Assembly: GCF_048403405.1 (NCBI RefSeq)
Contig: NZ_CP183136.1
Reading direction: 5' to 3' (one strand)
DNA length: 64,000 bases
DNA from: Escherichia coli
Lineage (GTDB): Bacteria; Pseudomonadota; Gammaproteobacteria; Enterobacterales; Enterobacteriaceae
The notes beneath the pieces were generated by a model. It did no database searches, was not told the DNA's origin, and worked only from the letters and a program-made list of their open reading frames with translations. Of this stretch, positions 26,037-49,410 are shown in pieces. Within the stretch, counting starts at the first letter, position 1. Each line of letters begins with the position of its first letter. The translations under genes and the position numbers were made by a program.

Positions 26037-26768
26037 ATGAAAACAAAAAAATTGATGATGGTTGCACTGGTCAGTTCCACTCTGGCCCTTTCAGGGTGTG
26101 GTGCGATGAGCACAGCAATCAAGAAGCGTAACCTTGAGGTGAAGACTCAGATGAGTGAGACCATCTGGCTTAAACCCGCCAGCGAACGCACGGTATTTCT
26201 GCAGATCAAAAACACGTCTGATAAAGACATGAGTGGGCTGCAGGGCAAAATTGCTGATGCTGTGAAAGCAAAAGGATATCAGGTGGTGACTTCTCCGGAT
26301 GCAGCCTACTACTGGATTCAGGCGAATGTGCTGAAGGCCGATAAGATGGATCTGCGGGAGTCTCAGGGATGGCTGAACCGTGGTTATGAAGGCGCAGCTG
26401 TTGGTGCAGCGTTAGGTGCCGGTATTACCGGCTATAACTCAAATTCTGCCGGTGCCACACTCGGTGTAGGCCTTGCTGCTGGTCTGGTGGGTATGGCTGC
26501 AGATGCGATGGTGGAAGATGTGAACTATACCATGATCACGGATGTGCAGATTGCAGAGCGTACTAAGGCAACGGTGACAACGGATAATGTTGCCGCCCTG
26601 CGTCAGGGCACATCAGGTGCGAAAATTCAGACCAGTACTGAAACAGGTAACCAGCATAAATACCAGACCCGTGTGGTCTCAAATGCGAACAAGGTTAACC
26701 TGAAATTTGAAGAGGCGAAGCCTGTTCTCGAAGACCAGCTGGCCAAATCAATCGCAAATATTCTCTGA
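26037..26768 (+). CDS. traT: TraT, surface exclusion / serum-resistance lipoprotein
   Basis: 243 aa, lipobox LALSGC, matches TraT from recall. Confidence 0.9.
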
Positions 26769-39469: not shown

Positions 39470-39570
39470 TTTAAGGAATTTTGTGGCTGGCCACGCCGTA
39501 AGGTGGCAGGGAACTGGTTCTGATGTGGATTTACAGGAGCCAGAAAAGTGAAAACCCCGATAATCTTCAG
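39470..39570 (-). ncRNA. copA: CopA antisense RNA (approximate)
   Basis: Position between copB and tap/repA1 in a RepFII replicon; bounds not resolved. Confidence 0.4.
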
Positions 39571-39654
39571 CAAGTTTGGCGACTAAGAAGAAGATTAACG
39601 GGGCTAACAAGAAACCGCATAGAAGCTGTTGCTCTATGCGGGGAGTATAGTTAT

Positions 39655-39729
39655 ATGCCCGGAAAAGTTCAAGACTTCTTTCTGTGCTCACTCCTTCTGT
39701 GCAACATAAGTGCAGGATGGTGTGACTGA
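39655..39729 (+). CDS. tap: Tap (RepA6) leader peptide
   Basis: 24-codon [27 protein letters not shown] whose stop overlaps the repA1 start. Confidence 0.7.
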
Positions 39730-40579
39730 TCTTCACCAAACGTATTACCGCCAGGTAAAGAACCCGAATCCGGTGTTTACACCCCGTAAAGGTGCCGGAA
39801 CGCTGAAGTTCTGCGAAAAACTGATGGAAAAGGCGGTGGGCTTCACCTCCCGTTTTGACTTCGCCATTCATGTGGCGCATGCCCGTTCGCGTGGTCTGCG
39901 TCGACGCATGCCACCGGTGCTGCGTCGACGGGCAATTGATGCGCTGCTGCAGGGGCTGTGTTTCCACTATGACCCGCTGGCCAACCGCGTCCAGTGCTCC
40001 ATCACCACACTGGCCATTGAGTGCGGACTGGCGACAGAGTCCGGTGCAGGAAAACTCTCCATCACCCGTGCCACCCGGGCCCTGACGTTCCTGTCAGAGC
40101 TGGGACTGATTACCTACCAGACGGAATATGACCCGCTTATCGGGTGCTACATTCCGACCGACATCACGTTCACACCGGCACTGTTTGCCGCTCTCGATGT
40201 GTCTGAGGTGGCGGTGGCTTCCGCACGCCGCAGTCGTGTGGAATGGGAAAACAGACAGCGCAAGAAGCAGGGACTGGATGCACTGGGCATGGATGAACTG
40301 ATAGCGAAAGCCTGGCGTTTTGTTCGTGAGCGTTTTCGCAGTTATCAGACAGAGCTTAAGTCCCGGGGAATAAAGCGTGCCCGTGCGCGTCGTGATGCGG
40401 ACAGGGAACGTCAGGATATTGTCACCCTGGTGAAACGGCAGCTGACGCGCGAAATCGCGGAAGGGCGCTTCACTGCCAATCGTGAGGCGGTAAAACGCGA
40501 AGTTGAGCGTCGTGTGAAGGAGCGCATGATTCTGTCACGTAACCGTAATTACAGCCGGCTGGCCACAGCTTCCCCCTGA
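39722..40579 (+). CDS. repA1: RepA1 replication initiator (IncFII)
   Basis: 285 codons from [29 protein letters not shown]..., matches R100/R1 RepA1 from recall. Confidence 0.9.
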
Positions 40580-40589
40580 AAGTGACCTC

Positions 40590-40850
40590 CTCTGAATAAT
40601 CCGGCCCGCGCTGGAGGCATTCGCACGCCTGAAGCCCGTCGATGCACAAAAAAACAGCACCACATACAAAAAACAACCTCATCATCCAGCTTCTGGTGCA
40701 TCCGGCCCCCCCTGTTTTCGATACAAAACACGCCTCACAGACGGGGAATTTTGCTTATCCACATTAAACTGCAAGGGACTTCCCCATAAGGTTACAACCG
40801 TTCATGTCATAAAGCGCCAGCCGCCAGTCTTACAGGGTGCAATGTATCTT
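40590..40850 (+). other. oriR: oriR vegetative origin region
   Basis: Directly downstream of repA1; DnaA box ttatccaca at 40755..40763. Confidence 0.6.
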
Positions 40851-41298
40851 TTAAACACCTGTTTATATCTCCTTTAAACTACTTAATTACATTCATTTAA
40901 AAAGAAAACCTATTCACTGCCTGTCCTGTGGACAGACAGATATGCACCTCCCACCGCAAGCGGCGGGCCCCGACCGGAGCCATTTTAGTTACAACACTCA
41001 AATACAAGCACCGGGAAAACCCCAGTCCAGCGCAGAACTGAAACCACAAAGCCCCTCCTCATAACTGAAAAGCGGCCCCGCCCCGGCCCGAAGGGCCGGA
41101 ACAGAGTCGCTTTTAATTATGAATGTTGTAACTACATCATCATCGCTGTCAGTCTTCTGGCTGGAAGTTCTCAGTACACGCTCGTAAGCGGCCCTGACGG
41201 CCCGCTAACGCGGAGATACGCCCCGACTTCGGGTAAACCCTCGTCGGGACCACTCCGACCGCGCACAGAAGCTCTCTCATAGCTGAAAACGGGTATAG

Positions 41299-41430
41299 TC
41301 TGGCAGGGCAAGGGATGGGTAAGGTGAAATCTATCAATCAGTACCGGCTTACGCCGGGCTTCGGCGGTTTTACTCCGGTATCACATGTAACCACAGCGTG
41401 CCGCCTTCCATGCCGCTGGCGCGGCATAAG
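41299..41430 (+). repeat. Conserved motif, copy 2 of 3 (gggtaaggtgaaatctatcaatcagtaccggcttacgccgg ... gccttccatgccgctggcgcggcataa)
   Basis: Shares blocks with 49934..50050 and 2620..2710. Confidence 0.5.
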
Positions 41431-41645
41431 CATATGTTGGTGGCTGTGTCTGAAAGGTTATATACTCTGCATAAAACCTGACAACACGCAGATTGCCAGG
41501 CAAATGAGCATTATGCATCCGGTTATCGCCTGCCTGTGAAACAATATCACCGGGGCGAATATCGATACTCTGACTCGTTATACCCATGCGTGCGGCATCA
41601 AAAAACCTGCAATTGCCCTTTATTGAATGAAAGGGGGAGTCAATT

Positions 41646-41909
41646 ATGAATAGCACCACACATTACGAAAACGCCAATTTCCTGCGCGAGCTGGCCGAAA
41701 GCCTGCCTCGTATTTTTCCAGAAGGCAGTACAGACAAGTCTGCACTATTGCAACGCCTCGCTAATGAAGAACTGGCACGGGCGGAATACGACGAACAGAT
41801 CCGAGCGAAAGTTGCCGCTGCCCGCGCCGATAAGCGGCCGGGAATGAGTTCCGCGCAACTGCGCCAGCAACTACAGGGACGTTATCAGGAACTGCGCAAT
41901 GAGTTATGA
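41646..41909 (+). CDS. yacA: Antitoxin (YacA-like)
   Basis: 87-aa ORF overlapping the toxin start. Confidence 0.65.
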   Translation: MNSTTHYENANFLRELAESLPRIFPEGSTDKSALLQRLANEELARAEYDEQIRAKVAAARADKRPGMSSAQLRQQLQGRYQELRNEL

Positions 41910-42198
41910 AATAGAATGGCGACCAGGTGCGATTGAGGATATAACGGCGTTGTTTGAATATCTGGTCGAGAATGCATCTCTTTGGGATGCAAGGAACGTG
42001 ACAGAGCGTCTGATCACTGCAACCGATCGCCTGGCTGATTACCCCAGGCTGTATGAAACGGATGAACGCTATGGTGAAGGGGTTCGCCGTATTAGCTTAC
42101 TTGGACAGCATGTACTTTATGAAGTGAATGATGAGGCCAGTCGTGTCAATATCCTGGCGGTTGTAGGCCAGCGTCAGAATCCCCGATTCATTCTTTGA
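41899..42198 (+). CDS. yacB: RelE/ParE-family toxin (YacB-like)
   Basis: 99-aa ORF overlapping the antitoxin stop; RelE/ParE-like size and C-terminus. Confidence 0.7.
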   Translation: MSYEIEWRPGAIEDITALFEYLVENASLWDARNVTERLITATDRLADYPRLYETDERYGEGVRRISLLGQHVLYEVNDEASRVNILAVVGQRQNPRFIL

Positions 42199-42233
42199 GT
42201 GTCCGGCTTGGAACTCCATCTTCAGAGAATCGA

Positions 42234-42899
42234 TCAACGTTCTTTAGCTCCTTCCACTAACAGCCGACCTATCTCAAACACCGCAGCTGACCGTCCCGAC
42301 TTCACCGCTTCGGCTTTCTGTCCCTCAACAAACCAGTTATTACCGTCCGTTCGGACCAACTCAAACATCCATGACATATCGTAAACGTGTTCCGGGATCA
42401 GCGACCCTTCTCCGGCCAGAATACCCGCCGTTATGGAGTGGTTGCCCCCGTGCACAAAGCCAATACGCCAGGGCAACCACAGGTCAACATAGTGGTTGTT
42501 TTTATCTTGCTTCCACGGCTTCCCCTTATGGGTTCCAATGCGTGAAACGTTATCGATATAGCGTGGTAGGCTCCAAGGCCACGGCAGCACTATGTCGCTT
42601 GCCAGCGACAACGGATAATCAGCGCCGTTCATCTCACACTCTTTCATCTTTTCGTAAGATTGTATTTGGGTAAGTCCCTTAAAGAAGAACTCCTGCGGGG
42701 TCATATCCGGGCGGGCATCTGTTCCCTCCTCAGCTACCGCCAGCAAGAAATCACTCTGTACTGGCCGCACGATAGCGCGAATGAGATCTGGTAGCGCCTT
42801 AACGGGTAGTTTCTCTGCCACAGAAAGCAGATGATTGAAGCGTTTTTTTTCATTGGCTATAGTTGCTTTATCTTTCTTGTTTCGGTTCCAGAACATCAC
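42234..42899 (-). CDS. Hypothetical protein (221 aa)
   Basis: Long ORF; no family recognised. Confidence 0.5.
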   Translation of the reverse strand: MMFWNRNKKDKATIANEKKRFNHLLSVAEKLPVKALPDLIRAIVRPVQSDFLLAVAEEGTDARPDMTPQEFFFKGLTQIQSYEKMKECEMNGADYPLSLASDIVLPWPWSLPRYIDNVSRIGTHKGKPWKQDKNNHYVDLWLPWRIGFVHGGNHSITAGILAGEGSLIPEHVYDMSWMFELVRTDGNNWFVEGQKAEAVKSGRSAAVFEIGRLLVEGAKER

Positions 42900-43468
42900 T
42901 GTCTGTAGCCCTCCTTATCGTGATCAGGATGATGGTTTTCATTCTAATGGTGTAGTAGTTTCACGTCACGCGCACGTGCATATTCTTCGAAAGCTTCGGC
43001 GTTAGCCGGTCAACCAGGGGGTTGAGGCCCAACCGTACGAGATCGTACGCTAAGTTCATTTTTTGAGCAGAAGAGGTGAGTAAAGAAAACGAGGGTTTTG
43101 TTTACTCTTCCCGTCAATGCCAGTAGCCATGCGGTTTCAGGGACTTTCAGTGTTAATAAACTCGGTAATCAAATCAACGTAAACCTGCCTAACAACGCCA
43201 CGACTTTATTGACTTAAAATCATATAGTTAGCTTCTTAGCGTACGTTTCCGCTCCATTGGGCTTCAAACCCCACACCCAATGACATGAGAAAAGCTGGAT
43301 CTGATTCTCAAAATGCTGGGATACCCATCGAGATGGAGAACTCAGTCAATGTTCCATTCTTTCTGAAATATGTGTGGGGACACTGATCTGTCGGGAGCCG
43401 GATGCGGTAGTTCCGCAGGTCCGGTTCTGAGGAGGGGCCCGTCCGGGCAACCGGCGGGTCTACTCACC

Positions 43469-44032
43469 TCATCCCCCTACAACCACTCCCATTCGTTTAA
43501 GTATTTTTAAACCTGCTTCCTGTGGTATCTTTATAGATAAGATCCTGTTTATCTCAGGATTTATATCGAGACCTTCTGTCATTGAAAAATCACAGTGAGA
43601 CAAATCAGAATGTCTGAACTCTGTATTATTAAACTCCGAACCAGTAAAATCAGATTTACGAAGGTCTGTTTCCTCAAATAAACAATCACGGAAGCGACTG
43701 GATAAAAAAATAGATTTCTGTAACCGTAAACTAATAAAATCAACAAATCTCAAATCACAATTTACAAGAGAAAAAGTACAGGGAAACATAATGTCTGCTG
43801 CATTTACTCCTTGTAATAAACAATCTTTGAATTCACAGTCAATAAGTTTAAAAAAATTAAGTTTTAAATTCTTTATTGAGCAGTTTACGAAGCGACATTT
43901 TTCGAACTCACAATCGCGAAAGTTAAAGTTGTCAAGCTGTATTCGTTCAAATATACAATTGTAATAATTTACACCTGATAATTCACTTTCACTGAGGTGT
44001 CGTTTTGTGATTCTTTTTTCTATTATATCCAT
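43469..44032 (-). CDS. mcbG: McbG, pentapeptide-repeat microcin B17 immunity protein
   Basis: 187 aa with pentapeptide repeats; last gene of the mcb operon. Confidence 0.85.
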   Translation of the reverse strand: MDIIEKRITKRHLSESELSGVNYYNCIFERIQLDNFNFRDCEFEKCRFVNCSIKNLKLNFFKLIDCEFKDCLLQGVNAADIMFPCTFSLVNCDLRFVDFISLRLQKSIFLSSRFRDCLFEETDLRKSDFTGSEFNNTEFRHSDLSHCDFSMTEGLDINPEINRILSIKIPQEAGLKILKRMGVVVGG

Positions 44033-44035
44033 GTG

Positions 44036-44767
44036 TCAGTCTCCTGTTCCCATAACTTCTTTAATAAATGCCTTTTCTGGAGTTGTTTCATTATTGGATT
44101 GAATAAAATCACTCATATCAGAATAACGATTTATACTATTTTTTGAAAGCATATAGAAGGGGATTTTATCTCTTGTTAATTCATCAAAAATATGAGTTGA
44201 GAAAAATACAGTTTTCCCGTCAGCGGTGATCTTATTTATCAGTTCCCATAACATCATTCTGTACTGAATATCAATGCCTACAGTTGGTTCATCCAGTAAA
44301 AATAAACGGGCATTTTTGCAAAGCGTTAGCATCAAAGATATGATAAGCCAACGCTTCTCTCCATAACTTACCGTGTAAGTCCTTTTACGTCTTATTTTAT
44401 CATAGCGAATGAAAAAATTATCATTCCATTTATGATTAAGCTCTGTCCATGCCTGTTTTTTAGTTAACTTATTGAAGCAGCAAATCAAATCAAGAACCTC
44501 CTCATTCCTTAGTGTACCTGAAAGATTTATGACTTGAGGTAGACTTACTAATTCTCCATCAGAGAAATTTCGCTTGAGGGTCCCTTCATAATTACTGACT
44601 CCGCCCCTGATAAGGTTAAAAAGAGTGGTCTTCCCGGCTCCATTTTCTCCAAGCAGACCTATCAACTCTCCCTGCTCAATCTTAAGCGACAGATTATTGA
44701 AAACAGGGGGTAAATTTACTTTATATGAAAAGCTCAGAGAGTTGATTTCTAAAAGAGGTATGGTCAT
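44036..44767 (-). CDS. mcbF: McbF, ABC transporter ATP-binding subunit
   Basis: Walker A GENGAGKTT, ABC signature. Confidence 0.85.
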   Translation of the reverse strand: MTIPLLEINSLSFSYKVNLPPVFNNLSLKIEQGELIGLLGENGAGKTTLFNLIRGGVSNYEGTLKRNFSDGELVSLPQVINLSGTLRNEEVLDLICCFNKLTKKQAWTELNHKWNDNFFIRYDKIRRKRTYTVSYGEKRWLIISLMLTLCKNARLFLLDEPTVGIDIQYRMMLWELINKITADGKTVFFSTHIFDELTRDKIPFYMLSKNSINRYSDMSDFIQSNNETTPEKAFIKEVMGTGD

Positions 44768-45489
44768 TGAGAACTCCAGACTGGCTCAGTTTTGAAGGTT
44801 AGTGCTGAAATAATACTTATGATTAACATTATACTATAGAAAAATATCGTCATCAGAGACAACTCCTGATCTGACTGGAGTATTGTAGAATAGATGGCGA
44901 TAGGATTAACCTGATTTATCCAGTAAACGATCCCCTCATTATATTTTAATGATACAATTCCTGATACCATACAGACAGTTATTAATACAGAATAGATAGT
45001 GCTGGCTGTTTGGAATGTGACTCTGAACGATGCCATGAAAGTGAGTGAAACCATCATAAATGCATTTATGTATATCGATTTTAAAATAATCATTACTATT
45101 TGATAATCTGGACTTGCCTGGAATCCTGTTAGTACGACTAAAATGAAAAAAAACACATACAAAATAGACATGATAAGTGAGGCTATTAATTGAGAACGAA
45201 TAAATAATAGTCGACCATCCATATTATGCACGAAGGTAGCAATAAAACCACTTTCTCTTCTTCCGACCAGATACAGACAGTAATTAAACAGAACAACAGA
45301 AAAAGAAATGTAGCCTACAAACCATGATATTTGTTTTCCGAGCCATGCTGTATCACCATAATGAAGTTCAATTTCATTGAAATGAAGGAAAAAGAACAAC
45401 ACTGTAGGTGACATAATTGTCCATATTAAGCTGAAAGGGGTTCTGATTTGTTCCATCAGAAAAATTATCGCCATTTTTAATGTAACCAT
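44764..45489 (-). CDS. mcbE: McbE, ABC transporter permease
   Basis: 241-aa polytopic membrane protein. Confidence 0.8.
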   Translation of the reverse strand: MVTLKMAIIFLMEQIRTPFSLIWTIMSPTVLFFFLHFNEIELHYGDTAWLGKQISWFVGYISFSVVLFNYCLYLVGRRESGFIATFVHNMDGRLLFIRSQLIASLIMSILYVFFFILVVLTGFQASPDYQIVMIILKSIYINAFMMVSLTFMASFRVTFQTASTIYSVLITVCMVSGIVSLKYNEGIVYWINQVNPIAIYSTILQSDQELSLMTIFFYSIMLIISIISALTFKTEPVWSSQ

Positions 45490-45498
45490 TTGTTATCC

Positions 45499-46689
45499 TT
45501 ATGGGAATGGTACCATCTTTGATTCTCTGACTTTAATACCGTCCCCGGTATGGTAAATTTTATTATTAATGTTTATTGCACCTGAGTTATTCATATGAAG
45601 GAAAAAATCAGGGCTTACTATTTTTGTGTACCAGACAAGGCTGTTACTTACTCTTTCCCTGGCATAGTAAACAAAAATATTATCAGAAATTTGTTGAAGA
45701 TAGTTTAATAAATTTGTGTCTGACGTAATATTTTCCTCAAGCGTTAACTTGACATCATCAGACAGTAGTACCGTATTTTCACACAAATCCGTAAACGACT
45801 CGTACTTGTTGCATGACATAAAGTGACGCTGGTAACTATCAATGATGTCATCATCAGTATAACCGCCAATAAGAAAGTTGTGCAGGCATATATACGATTG
45901 CCACAATTCCACTACGGATTTACAAAGTGCTTTTTTCAGACTATTAGCATAGGATAATCCGGTACTGTATTTTATTCGACTGATTTTGTTTTTTGTGCCA
46001 TACAGGGTTAGTACTGCGTGTCCAGGAGCTCCGGGCAGGGTGATATCGAAAATCCTGATATCTCCTTCTGACCTGAGAGCCAGTAAAATCTCATCTATAT
46101 GATTTATGCCTGTTACTATTTCACTGGATATTTCAGTATTGGCTTTTCCCTGTAACCAGTAAAGAAGGAGGGACTGTCTCTCCATAAATTCACACAAGGA
46201 ACCTTCTATGGCATCGTTCAAACTACCATGAAAGCTACATCCGCATGTATCTCTGTCAGGATAAAATTTCAGATCATCTGCAGCGGTTATATTGTCGAGT
46301 GCAATTATGACTGCAGGTATTTCTTGTTGTTCAAGGCTAAACAGATTAAAGGCTCTGACCGTTTTAAATTTATGGGTTATGATTTCATCGCGGGTCAGTG
46401 ATGAGATCTGAAAAAATGCTTCGGTAAAAGCCTTTGCAGCAGATGGAGGCATCATCTCATATAATGTTTTCTGACCACCGGTGACTATCTCATTAAAAAA
46501 ATGACGGCGTTCAAAATATTCACCTATTGCCCCCTGAATTGACTTCAGAGTTTCACCGGCCGCGCTGGCTGGTGTAATACGCTCATAGTCCCATATCTGA
46601 GAAAACGTTGGCATATTTCTGTTCAGTTTTGGACTCATGGCCATTGTGGCCGGCCATGCGGACATAAGGTTACTGTAGACATTTATCAT
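45499..46689 (-). CDS. mcbD: McbD, YcaO-type cyclodehydratase
   Basis: 396 aa, operon position. Confidence 0.85.
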   Translation of the reverse strand: MINVYSNLMSAWPATMAMSPKLNRNMPTFSQIWDYERITPASAAGETLKSIQGAIGEYFERRHFFNEIVTGGQKTLYEMMPPSAAKAFTEAFFQISSLTRDEIITHKFKTVRAFNLFSLEQQEIPAVIIALDNITAADDLKFYPDRDTCGCSFHGSLNDAIEGSLCEFMERQSLLLYWLQGKANTEISSEIVTGINHIDEILLALRSEGDIRIFDITLPGAPGHAVLTLYGTKNKISRIKYSTGLSYANSLKKALCKSVVELWQSYICLHNFLIGGYTDDDIIDSYQRHFMSCNKYESFTDLCENTVLLSDDVKLTLEENITSDTNLLNYLQQISDNIFVYYARERVSNSLVWYTKIVSPDFFLHMNNSGAININNKIYHTGDGIKVRESKMVPFP

Positions 46690-47488
46690 CGTTTACATCT
46701 CCAAAAAACTGAACGATCAGTGGCGCTACAGTCCTCTGATCCAGATTCATTGTTTTTGCTACGTATGAATCGGTATATCCCGCCCATACCCGGTTTTTCA
46801 GTCCTATTTGATCTGCAACCAATACTGCGTTCTGATACATCGAACCTGTTTCCATTAAGGCCATCCGGTATCCTCTGTAGCGATATTTGAACAAAGCTTT
46901 TTCAAAAATAATGCAATAGACGAGAGCAAAATGGGGTTTACCAAGACGTTCCGAATCCCCACCGGACAGGCTTCGGTAGAGTGACTGAGTATTACATGTA
47001 GCAACAGGTTCCAGTGCCTGACTTAGCGGCAGGTAGTGATAAACATTAGTTCCTGCCTGCCAGTTTTCTGTATTTTCAGATAATCTGCATAAAAAAACTT
47101 CAATCGGGTACAATGCCCCCCCAGAAGGATAAGGTCTTCTTACAGAGCCAGGATCAGGTGAGCTGAATGCATTGACTAATAACTTTTCAATAGTACGAAT
47201 GGAAAGTTTATTTTTGTCGCAAAAGTTTATTCCTGATGGGAGCCTTTCACGACTAAAATTATGTGATGAGGATATGTTTATTACGGAGCTGAAACCTGGC
47301 CTGAAGAGAACTTCTTTATTTTCAAATTTCTCCAGATGGGCAAGAGGTACCGCGGACACGAAAGTTCGTTCAGCAAATTCGGGGAGGGAAGCAAAGTTAC
47401 CTCTGACATGAAAATCTTTAACAATGGCCAGAACTTCAGGATCTGTGTAATGCGTTACTTCCACTAAAGAGAGTTCGTGTTTTGACAT
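46670..47488 (-). CDS. mcbC: McbC, FMN-dependent dehydrogenase
   Basis: 272 aa, operon position. Confidence 0.85.
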   Translation of the reverse strand: MSKHELSLVEVTHYTDPEVLAIVKDFHVRGNFASLPEFAERTFVSAVPLAHLEKFENKEVLFRPGFSSVINISSSHNFSRERLPSGINFCDKNKLSIRTIEKLLVNAFSSPDPGSVRRPYPSGGALYPIEVFLCRLSENTENWQAGTNVYHYLPLSQALEPVATCNTQSLYRSLSGGDSERLGKPHFALVYCIIFEKALFKYRYRGYRMALMETGSMYQNAVLVADQIGLKNRVWAGYTDSYVAKTMNLDQRTVAPLIVQFFGDVNDDKCLQ

Positions 47489-48277: not shown

Positions 48278-48286
48278 AAATGTAGG

Positions 48287-49343
48287 GGCTTTGTTGAATA
48301 AATCGAACTTTTGCTGAGTTGAAGGATCAGATCACGCATCTTCCCGACAACGCAGACCGTTCCGTGGCAAAGCAAAAGTTCAAAATAACCAACTGGCCCA
48401 CCTACAATAAAGCCCTCATCAACCGTGGCTCCATAACTTTCTGGCTGGATGATGAAGCTATTCAGGCCTGGTATGAGTCAGCAACACCTTCTTCACGAGG
48501 CAGACCTCAGCGCTATTCTGACCTTGCCATCACGACTGTGCTGGTCATTAAACGCGTATTCAGGCTGACCCTGCGCGCTGCGCAGGGCTTTATTGATTCC
48601 ATTTTTTCTCTGATGAACGTTCCGCTACGCTGCCCGGATTACAGCTGTGTCAGCAGGCGGGCAAAGTCGGTTAATATCAGTTTCAAAACGCCCACCCGGG
48701 GTGAAATCGCACACCTGGTAATTGATTCCACCGGGCTGAAGGTCTTCGGTGAAGGCGAGTGGAAAGTCAAAAAGCATGGTCAGGAACGCCGCCGTATCTG
48801 GCGTAAGCTGCATCTGGCAGTTGACAGCAACACACATGAAATCATCTGTGCAGACCTGTCGCTGAACAATGTGACGGACTCAGAAGCCTTCCCGGGTCTT
48901 ATCCGGCAGACTCACAGAAAAATCAGGGCAGCATCGGCAGACGGCGCTTACGACACCCGGCTCTGTCACGATGAACTGCGGCGTAAGAAAATCAGCGCGC
49001 TTATCCCACCCCGAAAAGGCGCGGGTTACTGGCCCGGTGAATATGCAGACCGTAACCGTGCTGTTGCGAATCAGCGAATGACCGGGAGTAATGCGCGGTG
49101 GAAATGGACAACAGATTACAACCGTCGCTCGATAGCGGAAACGGCGATGTACCGGGTAAAACAGCTGTTCGGGGGTTCACTGACGCTGCGTGACTACGAT
49201 GGTCAGGTTGCGGAGGCTATGGCCCTGGTACGAGCGCTGAACAAAATGACGAAAGCAGGTATGCCTGAAAGCGTGCGTATTGCCTGAAAACACAACCCGC
49301 TACGGGGGAGACTTACCCGAAATCTGATTTATTCAACAAAGCC
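48287..49343 (+). mobile_element. IS903 (IS5 family), 1057 bp, 18-bp terminal inverted repeats, 9-bp target duplication AAATGTAGG
   Basis: IR ggctttgttgaataaatc at 48287 and its reverse complement ending 49343; identical aaatgtagg at 48278..48286 and 49344..49352. Confidence 0.9.
48319..49287 (+). CDS. IS903 transposase
   Basis: 322-aa ORF filling the element; IS903/IS102 transposase from recall. Confidence 0.9.
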   Translation: MKDQITHLPDNADRSVAKQKFKITNWPTYNKALINRGSITFWLDDEAIQAWYESATPSSRGRPQRYSDLAITTVLVIKRVFRLTLRAAQGFIDSIFSLMNVPLRCPDYSCVSRRAKSVNISFKTPTRGEIAHLVIDSTGLKVFGEGEWKVKKHGQERRRIWRKLHLAVDSNTHEIICADLSLNNVTDSEAFPGLIRQTHRKIRAASADGAYDTRLCHDELRRKKISALIPPRKGAGYWPGEYADRNRAVANQRMTGSNARWKWTTDYNRRSIAETAMYRVKQLFGGSLTLRDYDGQVAEAMALVRALNKMTKAGMPESVRIA

Positions 49344-49410
49344 AAATGTAGGTAATAAGCAGGGTCTTTGTATTTCTGGAAATTATCTCAAACGGCAGAA
49401 TATTGATCAT
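49344..49410 (-). pseudogene. mcbB: mcbB 5' fragment (first 22 codons, MINILPFEIISRNTKTLLITYI)
   Basis: Minus-strand ATG at 49410 with RBS; coding continues to the IS903 junction. Confidence 0.75.

Follow-up and report, generated by a model that had tools for sequence, protein, structure and literature searches.

A FipA-family gene and a spacer of mobile-element relics beside the microcin B17 module of an Escherichia coli IncFII plasmid

According to work cited in PMC5696584 (Santini & Stanisich 1998; Maindola 2014), the fertility-inhibition protein FipA of the incompatibility group N (IncN) plasmid pKM101 inhibits the transfer of plasmids RP1/RP4 via TraG, and the same source cites it as an inhibitor of T-DNA (transferred DNA) transfer. 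It also describes how, with RP4 and FipA together, the mobilisation of plasmids using the helper coupling protein is blocked, whereas CloDF13, which has its own coupling protein, escapes (PMC5696584). Inhibition of RP4 transfer is likewise known for tir of plasmid R100, a gene occupying the slot after repA, beside pemIK (PMC4398462). The present analysis deals with an open reading frame (ORF) of 221 codons at positions 42234-42899 of a 64,000-nucleotide stretch of Escherichia coli DNA (contig NZ_CP183136.1; this whole stretch is called the window below), and with the spacer separating it from the microcin B17 (mcb) gene module. With RepA at 39710-40579 and a CopA RNA at 39546-39637 (86 bits), the window represents an IncFII replicon; it comes from a plasmid closely related to the prototype microcin plasmid pMccB17, in whose annotation the ORF figures as "gene_14, hypothetical protein", placed between relE/parE and mcbG (PMC10912980). 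Judged from its sequence, it is a previously unlabelled relative of the FipA-family fertility inhibitors, missed in the published annotation. The analysis demonstrates the homology and family membership of the ORF, the purifying selection acting on it, the origin of the relics in the spacer and the anatomy of the latter. That the ORF belongs to the FipA family and that the spacer is built as described here can, taken jointly, be regarded as nearly certain; the overall explanation, which adds a function to these two elements, is on the whole probable.

Membership of the ORF in the FipA family

The ORF, which lies on the minus strand and has a GTG start, is found just as an earlier note on the window had described it. 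The note had considered that no family could be assigned to it, a view refuted by a strong profile match and by homology to FipA of IncN plasmids. Pfam family PF20457 (DUF6710) is matched with 166 bits (E 1e-48; cut-off 27) over profile positions 8-200 of 205. The name DUF6710 is absent from the papers of the literature searched; it was two UniRef "Fip" names that pointed to the IncN fertility-inhibition gene fipA. The DUF6710 protein of R46, the parent of pKM101, is an exact match to UniRef Q56054 "Fip", and its gene lies between a phospholipase-D nuclease gene (nuc) and the MobF relaxase gene; the copy of pMUR050 is named "Fertility inhibition protein". In BLASTP the window protein and R46 Fip share 50% identity over 200 amino acids (aa; E 1e-76), the R46/pKM101 protein having 208 aa and that of the window 221. 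Both R46 and pMUR050 are included among the carriers of FipA_pKM101 homologues in Supplementary Table 2 of Getino et al. 2017, together with some F-type, Enterococcus and Listeria plasmids (PMC5696584). Closer still, the protein encoded in the fipA slot of the IncN-type plasmid p32B19001A_C_KPC (L010) is 88% identical to the window protein, a fipA remnant in p271A shows 87% DNA identity to the ORF, and the gene at the fipA locus of IncN2 plasmids (pJIE137 backbone) has been called fipA (PMC3490853). It follows from this chain of homology, running through R46, pMUR050, L010 and the IncN2 plasmids, that DUF6710 is the FipA family and that the window ORF is one of its members.

The window gene does not occupy the traI-nuc position at the end of an IncN relaxase operon, being found instead in an IncFII maintenance core; membership of the family does not depend on such a position, as carriers outside IncN also figure in the table of Getino et al. 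No match to the ORF was obtained among NCBIfam models, PADLOC models or PDB sequences, and the pMccB17 paper draws no FipA connection for gene_14 (PMC10912980).

The fipA-like gene is under purifying selection, with a ratio of nonsynonymous to synonymous substitution rates (dN/dS) of 0.135 against the IncN-type copy and of 0.17-0.23 against the remaining homologues compared. Its product, of 25.2 kDa and with no predicted transmembrane segments, yields an AlphaFold2 model with a pLDDT (predicted local distance difference test) of 97.2, for which a Foldseek search of the PDB returned nothing significant; a confident model with no known structural relative makes FipA a sensible choice for studies of structure and mechanism. 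Conservation was computed across 108 diverse family members, with the numbering of the window protein. G152 and S155 are invariant in these 108 members, and N135, H136, N153, H154, D174, E209 and R212 are kept in at least 90% of them, all these residues being present in the window protein. The resulting core (N135-H136, G152-N153-H154-S155, D174, E209 and R212) is shared with the R46/pKM101 FipA. The family comprises 646 clusters at 50% identity, distributed over several phyla.

Plasmids retaining only the C-terminal half of IncN fipA are numerous (hits H92-H105). Their partial tblastn matches (aa 114-214, 57% identity) were considered as tir-like sequences and rejected as such, the one inspected (H96; L006:2807-4300) being an IncN fipA cut at IS26. 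This agrees with published remarks that describe fipA as an insertion hot spot in IncN backbones.

Origin of the gene and anatomy of the spacer

The spacer measures 569 bp (42900-43468), from the start of the fipA-like gene to the mcbG stop codon (43469-43471). Its lack of any ORF of 60 aa or more, pointed out in the earlier note, was borne out (the longest has 56 aa), without being statistically notable, as 39% of the sequences obtained from these 569 bp by mononucleotide shuffling lack such an ORF as well; since ORF-free runs are this common in shuffles, the spacer is noteworthy for its content and not for its emptiness. The RefSeq annotation of identical plasmids gives no feature within it. 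The remnants that the note had suspected at the boundary of the mcb module do exist, and are three: the C-terminal relic of a relaxase gene, a miniature element of the Tn3 type, and a group II intron of which the 3' end is left. The translated search that it had proposed, run with tblastn, returned the relaxase relic and 29 decayed ltrA codons. Of the two findings that in its terms would together have refuted its reading, a characterised homologue of the ORF was indeed found, and the absence of remnants was not. The features of the region, with the strand where one was assigned, are the following:

41646-41909, plus strand: RelB/ParD-like antitoxin gene, with a weak PaaA2/RelB match
41899-42198, plus strand: ParE toxin gene (Pfam ParE_toxin, E 9e-13), convergent with the fipA-like gene
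42234-42899, minus strand: fipA-like gene (DUF6710 family), GTG start, 221 aa, 25.2 kDa, soluble product
42905-42991, minus strand: decayed relic of traI, a MobF relaxase gene of the IncN2/N3 type, comprising its last 29 codons and containing an in-frame stop (tblastn)
42909-42916, minus strand: ribosome-binding site AAGGAGGG, read from the sequence, some 9 nt ahead of the GTG start and native to the traI/fipA overlap of IncN-type plasmids
42941-42969, minus strand: promoter-like site GTGACG-17 nt-TAGAAT, a consensus match only, inside the relaxase relic
42992-43016: 25-bp junction sequence with no match assigned
43017-43272: 256-bp miniature element with 38-nt imperfect Tn3-family terminal inverted repeats and no transposase
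43273-43468, plus strand: group II intron relic, the 196 bp of the 3' terminus, with 93-94% identity to the intact intron of L001
43274-43360, plus strand: C-terminal relic of ltrA, last 29 codons, with a Trp-to-stop change
43393-43468, plus strand: intron domains V/VI, part of the 3' terminal relic
43469-43477: intron 3' exon TCATCCCCC, a variant of the Tn3-family inverted repeat tip
43469-44032, minus strand: mcbG, pentapeptide-repeat immunity protein gene (Pfam Pentapeptide families), with which the AT-rich mcb module begins on the side of the spacer

The segment 41500-44100 is found with 100% identity in at least about 20 plasmid records among the matches listed, mostly from E. coli, and is covered to at least 80% in 61 records. 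Being identical across so many records, the arrangement appears to be stable and widespread, and not an assembly artefact.

The part of the spacer closest to the fipA-like gene tells where the latter came from. When the relaxases of L010 and p271A were compared with the whole window by tblastn, they matched the 29-codon relic with 66-69% identity (E 9e-6 to 3e-5). At the DNA level the window shows about 87% identity with L010 4912-5657 and with p271A 26355-26676, this homology stopping near 42988-42991, and L010 presents the same AAGGAGGG...GTGATG layout, in which the relaxase stop overlaps the fipA start. Because a truncated relaxase tail is explicable only as a relic, the gene must have been taken from an IncN-type transfer operon, and the sequence comparisons make plasmids of the IncN2/N3 type (pJIE137/p271A backbone; L010) the probable source lineage. 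The gene was captured from the end of such an operon, carrying with it its ribosome-binding site and 29 relaxase codons, and now forms part of a maintenance core composed of repA, the ParDE-like toxin-antitoxin genes and the fipA-like gene itself. That it belongs to the plasmid backbone and not to the microcin module is deduced from pCEC15, where the repA-antitoxin-ParE-DUF6710 unit is present without mcb genes, and from a Klebsiella IncFIB plasmid whose DUF6710 gene adjoins the RepB gene. With the relaxase gene reduced to a 29-codon relic that contains a stop, the fipA-like gene must by now depend on transcription independent of it. The TAGAAT hexamer of the promoter-like site (42941-42946) reads GAGCAC in the IncN-type relaxase gene, and its TAG is the in-frame stop of the relic; this change could represent the birth of a promoter after capture. 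As for the neighbouring toxin-antitoxin pair, its identification as yacAB was rejected, as there is no DNA similarity.

The miniature element comes next, beyond the 25-bp junction. Its terminal inverted repeats (left 43017-43054, right 43235-43272) are 38 nt long and 76% complementary, and they align to the inverted repeat of Tn3; the left one has GGGGGTTGA at its tip. The element thereby presents the Tn3-type end pattern GGGG...ACGxTAAG enclosing a short non-coding core, which here has 180 bp, the longest ORF within the element not exceeding 39 aa. Copies with 99.6% identity lie in contexts unrelated to that of the window, beside a ProQ/FinO gene in L002 and beside a recombinase pseudogene in L008. 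The element is present in 194 plasmid records, in 182 of them at full length, and variants with 81-86% identity occur in Klebsiella and Providencia. In the two contexts inspected by eye (window and L002) the flanks differ and no 5-bp target duplication was seen around the element, whose copies may have undergone rearrangement since they were inserted. An identification with the 257-bp element published for p271A/pTR3 was tried and discarded, as p271A contains no similar sequence and the match in length is coincidental. A stretch of 13 nt inside the element (43070-43082, GAAGAGGTGAGTA) is 92% complementary to the junction of intron 3' end and exon at 43461-43473 (TACTCACCTCATC), which may be a matter of chance.

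The last portion of the spacer corresponds to an intron end. LtrA residues 414-442 are recovered from the window by tblastn with 96.6% identity and one stop. The segment scores 34.4 bits with the Rfam model Intron_gpII, under the gathering score of 40, the intact intron of L001 reaching 39.9 bits on this model and 103 bits on group-II-D1D4-6. When the L001 intron region was compared with the window, the only match beyond the 3' end was the flanking Tn3-type inverted repeat, the maturase and domains I-IV not being found; by its sequence, the segment is a relic and not an intron. Matches of the region to the Rfam families Pinc, PK-repZ and plastid D5 were below threshold and were treated as noise. 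Introns of this family (Rfam group-II-D1D4-6) sit within Tn3-family terminal inverted repeats, at 9 bp from the tip. In L030 (1677-3590) the intron lies just after blaTEM-1 and its two exons, of which the 3' one is TCAGACCCC, restore the canonical right inverted repeat of Tn3 when joined, and in L001 (2088-4198) it splits the inverted repeat of a related miniature element. Such insertions suggest, on sequence grounds, that the intron homes into transposon ends.

In the window, the 3' exon TCATCCCCC reads on the other strand GGG GGA TGA, that is, the last two Gly codons and the stop of mcbG. The end of this gene (43469-43477) coincides with a Tn3-type inverted repeat tip (compare GGGGTCTGA and GGGGGTTGA), and it may be a transposon end that fixed where mcbG now terminates. 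The G+C content drops at position 43469, from 54% in the intron relic to 31.9% in mcbG. The miniature element and the intron relic accompany mcbG in other plasmids (L003, L008), and among the mcbG copies listed in the E. coli collection all keep at least part of the intron relic. Because both travel with mcbG elsewhere, the junction between backbone and module is placed near 43013-43017.

The spacer is a scar between the plasmid backbone and the mcb module. The latter would once have ended at a Tn3-family repeat immediately adjoining the mcbG stop codon, and into this repeat a group II intron would have homed; later the miniature element would have landed in the intron as a second copy, and recombination between the two element copies would then have removed the intron 5' part. 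This succession of homing, second insertion and recombination fits the layout of the spacer, which points to a Tn3-family inverted repeat as a former boundary of the mcb module. The fipA-like gene and its relic-filled spacer are ordinary plasmid biology, the spacer being a mosaic of mobile-element relics.

Further into the module, mcbB is split by an insertion sequence (IS) of 1,057 bp at 48287-49343 (DDE_Tnp_1 transposase, ends GGCTTTGTTGAATAAATC), flanked by a 9-bp duplication, AAATGTAGG (48278-48286 and 49344-49352). Its ends are of the IS903 type. The mcbA gene is intact at 49679-49473; judging from the interrupted mcbB, microcin B17 synthesis is probably abolished in the window plasmid, unlike in pMccB17. 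McbG, with 187 aa, is part of the published pMccB17 gene list, and the same study reported that ISfinder gave no transposable elements (PMC10912980), a claim of absent transposable-element sequences that the spacer anatomy corrects.

Proposed function and its rivals

With moderate confidence, and by analogy with pKM101 FipA, we favour the view that the window protein blocks the transfer of co-resident IncP-type plasmids via the TraG coupling protein. In this model, a soluble cytoplasmic protein of 25 kDa would be made in cells carrying the IncFII plasmid. If a rival element of the IncP or VirB-VirD4 type shared the cell, the protein would interfere with the TraG/VirD4-class coupling protein of that element, the DNA of which would then not be passed to its secretion channel. 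Transfer of the host plasmid itself by its F-type system, with TraD, would not be affected. Expression of the gene, inhibition of transfer and a TraG-like target would all be expected from the genetic work on the 50%-identical FipA of pKM101.

Three points weigh against this proposal. Identity to the tested pKM101 FipA is only 50%, so that the target range could differ. Promoter-like consensus matches in the region are no commoner than in shuffles. Finally, many DUF6710 members lie distant from conjugation genes, some of them adjoining defence genes of the CBASS (cyclic-oligonucleotide-based antiphage signalling system), GAPS4 and BrxR types; the family role may therefore exceed fertility inhibition.

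The surroundings of the wider family are indeed varied. Some are related to conjugation and count in favour of the proposal: a Pseudomonas integrative and conjugative element carries its DUF6710 gene between type IV secretion system (T4SS) genes and the gene for a TraG-type coupling protein, and in other phyla the neighbours include TrbM, MobA/MobL, T4SS-DNA_transf and TraG-D_C. A Burkholderia plasmid has the gene in a maintenance core with the order Rep3-ParB-ParA-DUF6710-Phd/YoeB. A scan of species-representative genomes, made with 26 sequences closer than the 108-member set, brought to light 27 loci, which belong to Firmicutes, Nitrospirae and several classes of proteobacteria. In a survey of 26 loci there was no recurrent partner gene among 145 neighbouring ORFs, which formed a mixed collection of integrases, TrbM, MobA/MobL, coupling proteins and Zeta toxin, with occasional CBASS, PD-Lambda-5 and IetA matches. 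Such mixed and non-recurrent neighbours indicate that the DUF6710 gene is a solitary accessory gene of mobile or variable regions.

These same surroundings make a general defence role of DUF6710 possible, and the rival explanation that survives best builds on them, although we consider it unlikely. According to this explanation, FipA would be a single-gene factor against mobile elements at large, possibly an enzyme with an NH...GGNHS...D...E..R pocket, which protects the pair formed by host and plasmid against incoming or co-resident elements generally, IncP inhibition being just one visible outcome. It draws on two divergent Pseudomonas chromosomes (L014/L015:4724-8705; L025:7001-10800) where the DUF6710 gene adjoins a type III CBASS operon (SMODS, HORMA, TRIP13-like AAA, RNase_T exonuclease and Cap17-like effector, BrxR/WYL regulator), in opposite orientations and with different outer flanks, and on further homologues found near GAPS4 genes, right after a BrxR/WYL regulator gene or near a YobI-type ATPase. 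The PD-Lambda-5, IetA and CBASS models matching surveyed neighbours point in the same direction, as do the mainly polar or glycine character of the invariant and nearly invariant residues and the breadth of the family across phyla. However, no PADLOC model matches the protein, and in the 26-locus survey each defence family accounts for at most two neighbours, mobile-element markers being at least as common in raw counts; a large overlap of defence islands with mobile elements exists in any case. In its broadest form the idea is equally doubtful: DUF6710/FipA would be a widespread stand-alone effector against conjugation or mobile elements, with an unseen fold and possibly a catalytic NH/GGNHS/D/E-R pocket, traded among transfer operons, maintenance cores and defence islands. 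If that were true, the IncFII copy would represent a plasmid domesticating a rival's weapon.

A second alternative, which we regard as improbable, supposes that FipA resembles Osa, its C-terminal alpha/beta domain being a divergent ParB/sulfiredoxin (Srx) fold that acts on the DNA-relaxase substrate at the coupling protein. What inspired it is the invariant strand-to-helix motif FVxGGNHSIxAGIL...IPxxVYD, which resembles the ParB/Srx signature (GERRxRAA...IPAIV, and FTDGMTRS in Osa). Osa is also a fertility inhibitor with a solved ParB/Srx structure (PMC5696584). Against this, hhalign of the FipA profile with the Osa family (Pfam PFIN) gave a probability of 0.3%, none of the 108 members matches a ParB-type Pfam family even at E values up to 10, a profile search of PDB sequences yielded nothing relevant, and Getino et al. 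likewise found the profiles unrelated (PMC5696584). Homology to Osa or to ParB/Srx proteins is thus unsupported by the Pfam, PDB-profile and hhalign comparisons alike.

It is very improbable that the gene is a passenger without function, or that it serves as a third component in the neighbouring ParDE-like toxin-antitoxin or stability module. In favour of such a reading, 35 bp separate it from the stop codon of parE, and DUF6710 genes adjoin toxin-antitoxin pairs in pCEC15 and in the Burkholderia plasmid. Against it, the gene is under purifying selection (dN/dS 0.13-0.23) and convergent, not co-oriented, with the pair, the partner families differ (ParE here and YoeB in Burkholderia), and toxin-antitoxin genes are absent beside the copies in IncN plasmids, IncFIB(K) plasmids and chromosomes.

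Inhibition of IncP-type transfer through TraG is the reading retained here, and it offers a testable function for gene_14, one of the 25 unknown genes of pMccB17, which is also present in a common F2:A-:B- plasmid family from clinical E. coli. If it holds, these plasmids would influence the spread of others from their hosts, resistance plasmids included.

Comparison with known systems

Among the elements of the spacer, the 256-bp sequence is like the Tn3-derived miniature elements in having Tn3-type ends of 38 nt and no transposase, and differs from them in the 5-bp target duplication, which inspection by eye did not reveal in either of two contexts. With group-II-D1D4-6 introns carrying ltrA the intron relic shares 93-94% identity, but over the last 196 bp only.

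Regarding the protein, Osa/FiwA (ParB/Srx fold) and PifC are comparable as plasmid-borne inhibitors acting at the step of the TraG/VirD4/TrwB coupling protein (PMC5696584). Tir of the IncFII plasmid R100 is akin in position, its gene lying in the slot beyond repA and the origin beside a toxin-antitoxin pair, and in phenotype, IncP inhibition being reported for Tir and expected for the window protein. However, Tir is by annotation a membrane endopeptidase of the CPBP family and is not homologous to the window protein; the candidate homology was rejected (best BLASTP E 3.3), the analogy in position and phenotype being what stays. When window positions 39710-42899 are set against R100 (L007) 43813-46946, unrelated genes linked to IncP inhibition are seen in the same IncFII slot, tir being paired with pemIK in R100 and the fipA-like gene with ParDE-like genes in the window.

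The pKM101/R46 FipA shares with the window protein full-length homology (50%, E 1e-76), the DUF6710 assignment, a similar size and the residues of the conserved core; its gene lies between nuc and traI, whereas that of the window is part of the IncFII replication and maintenance core. The closest likeness is to fipA of the IncN2/N3 type (88% in protein and about 87% in DNA), where homology reaches the relaxase 3' end and the stop/start overlap, with a relaxase there in contrast to the 29-codon relic with its in-frame stop in the window. Taken together, these comparisons describe a fertility-inhibition gene that has moved between plasmid groups, from a transfer operon to a maintenance core, where it occupies the slot in which R100 has the unrelated tir.

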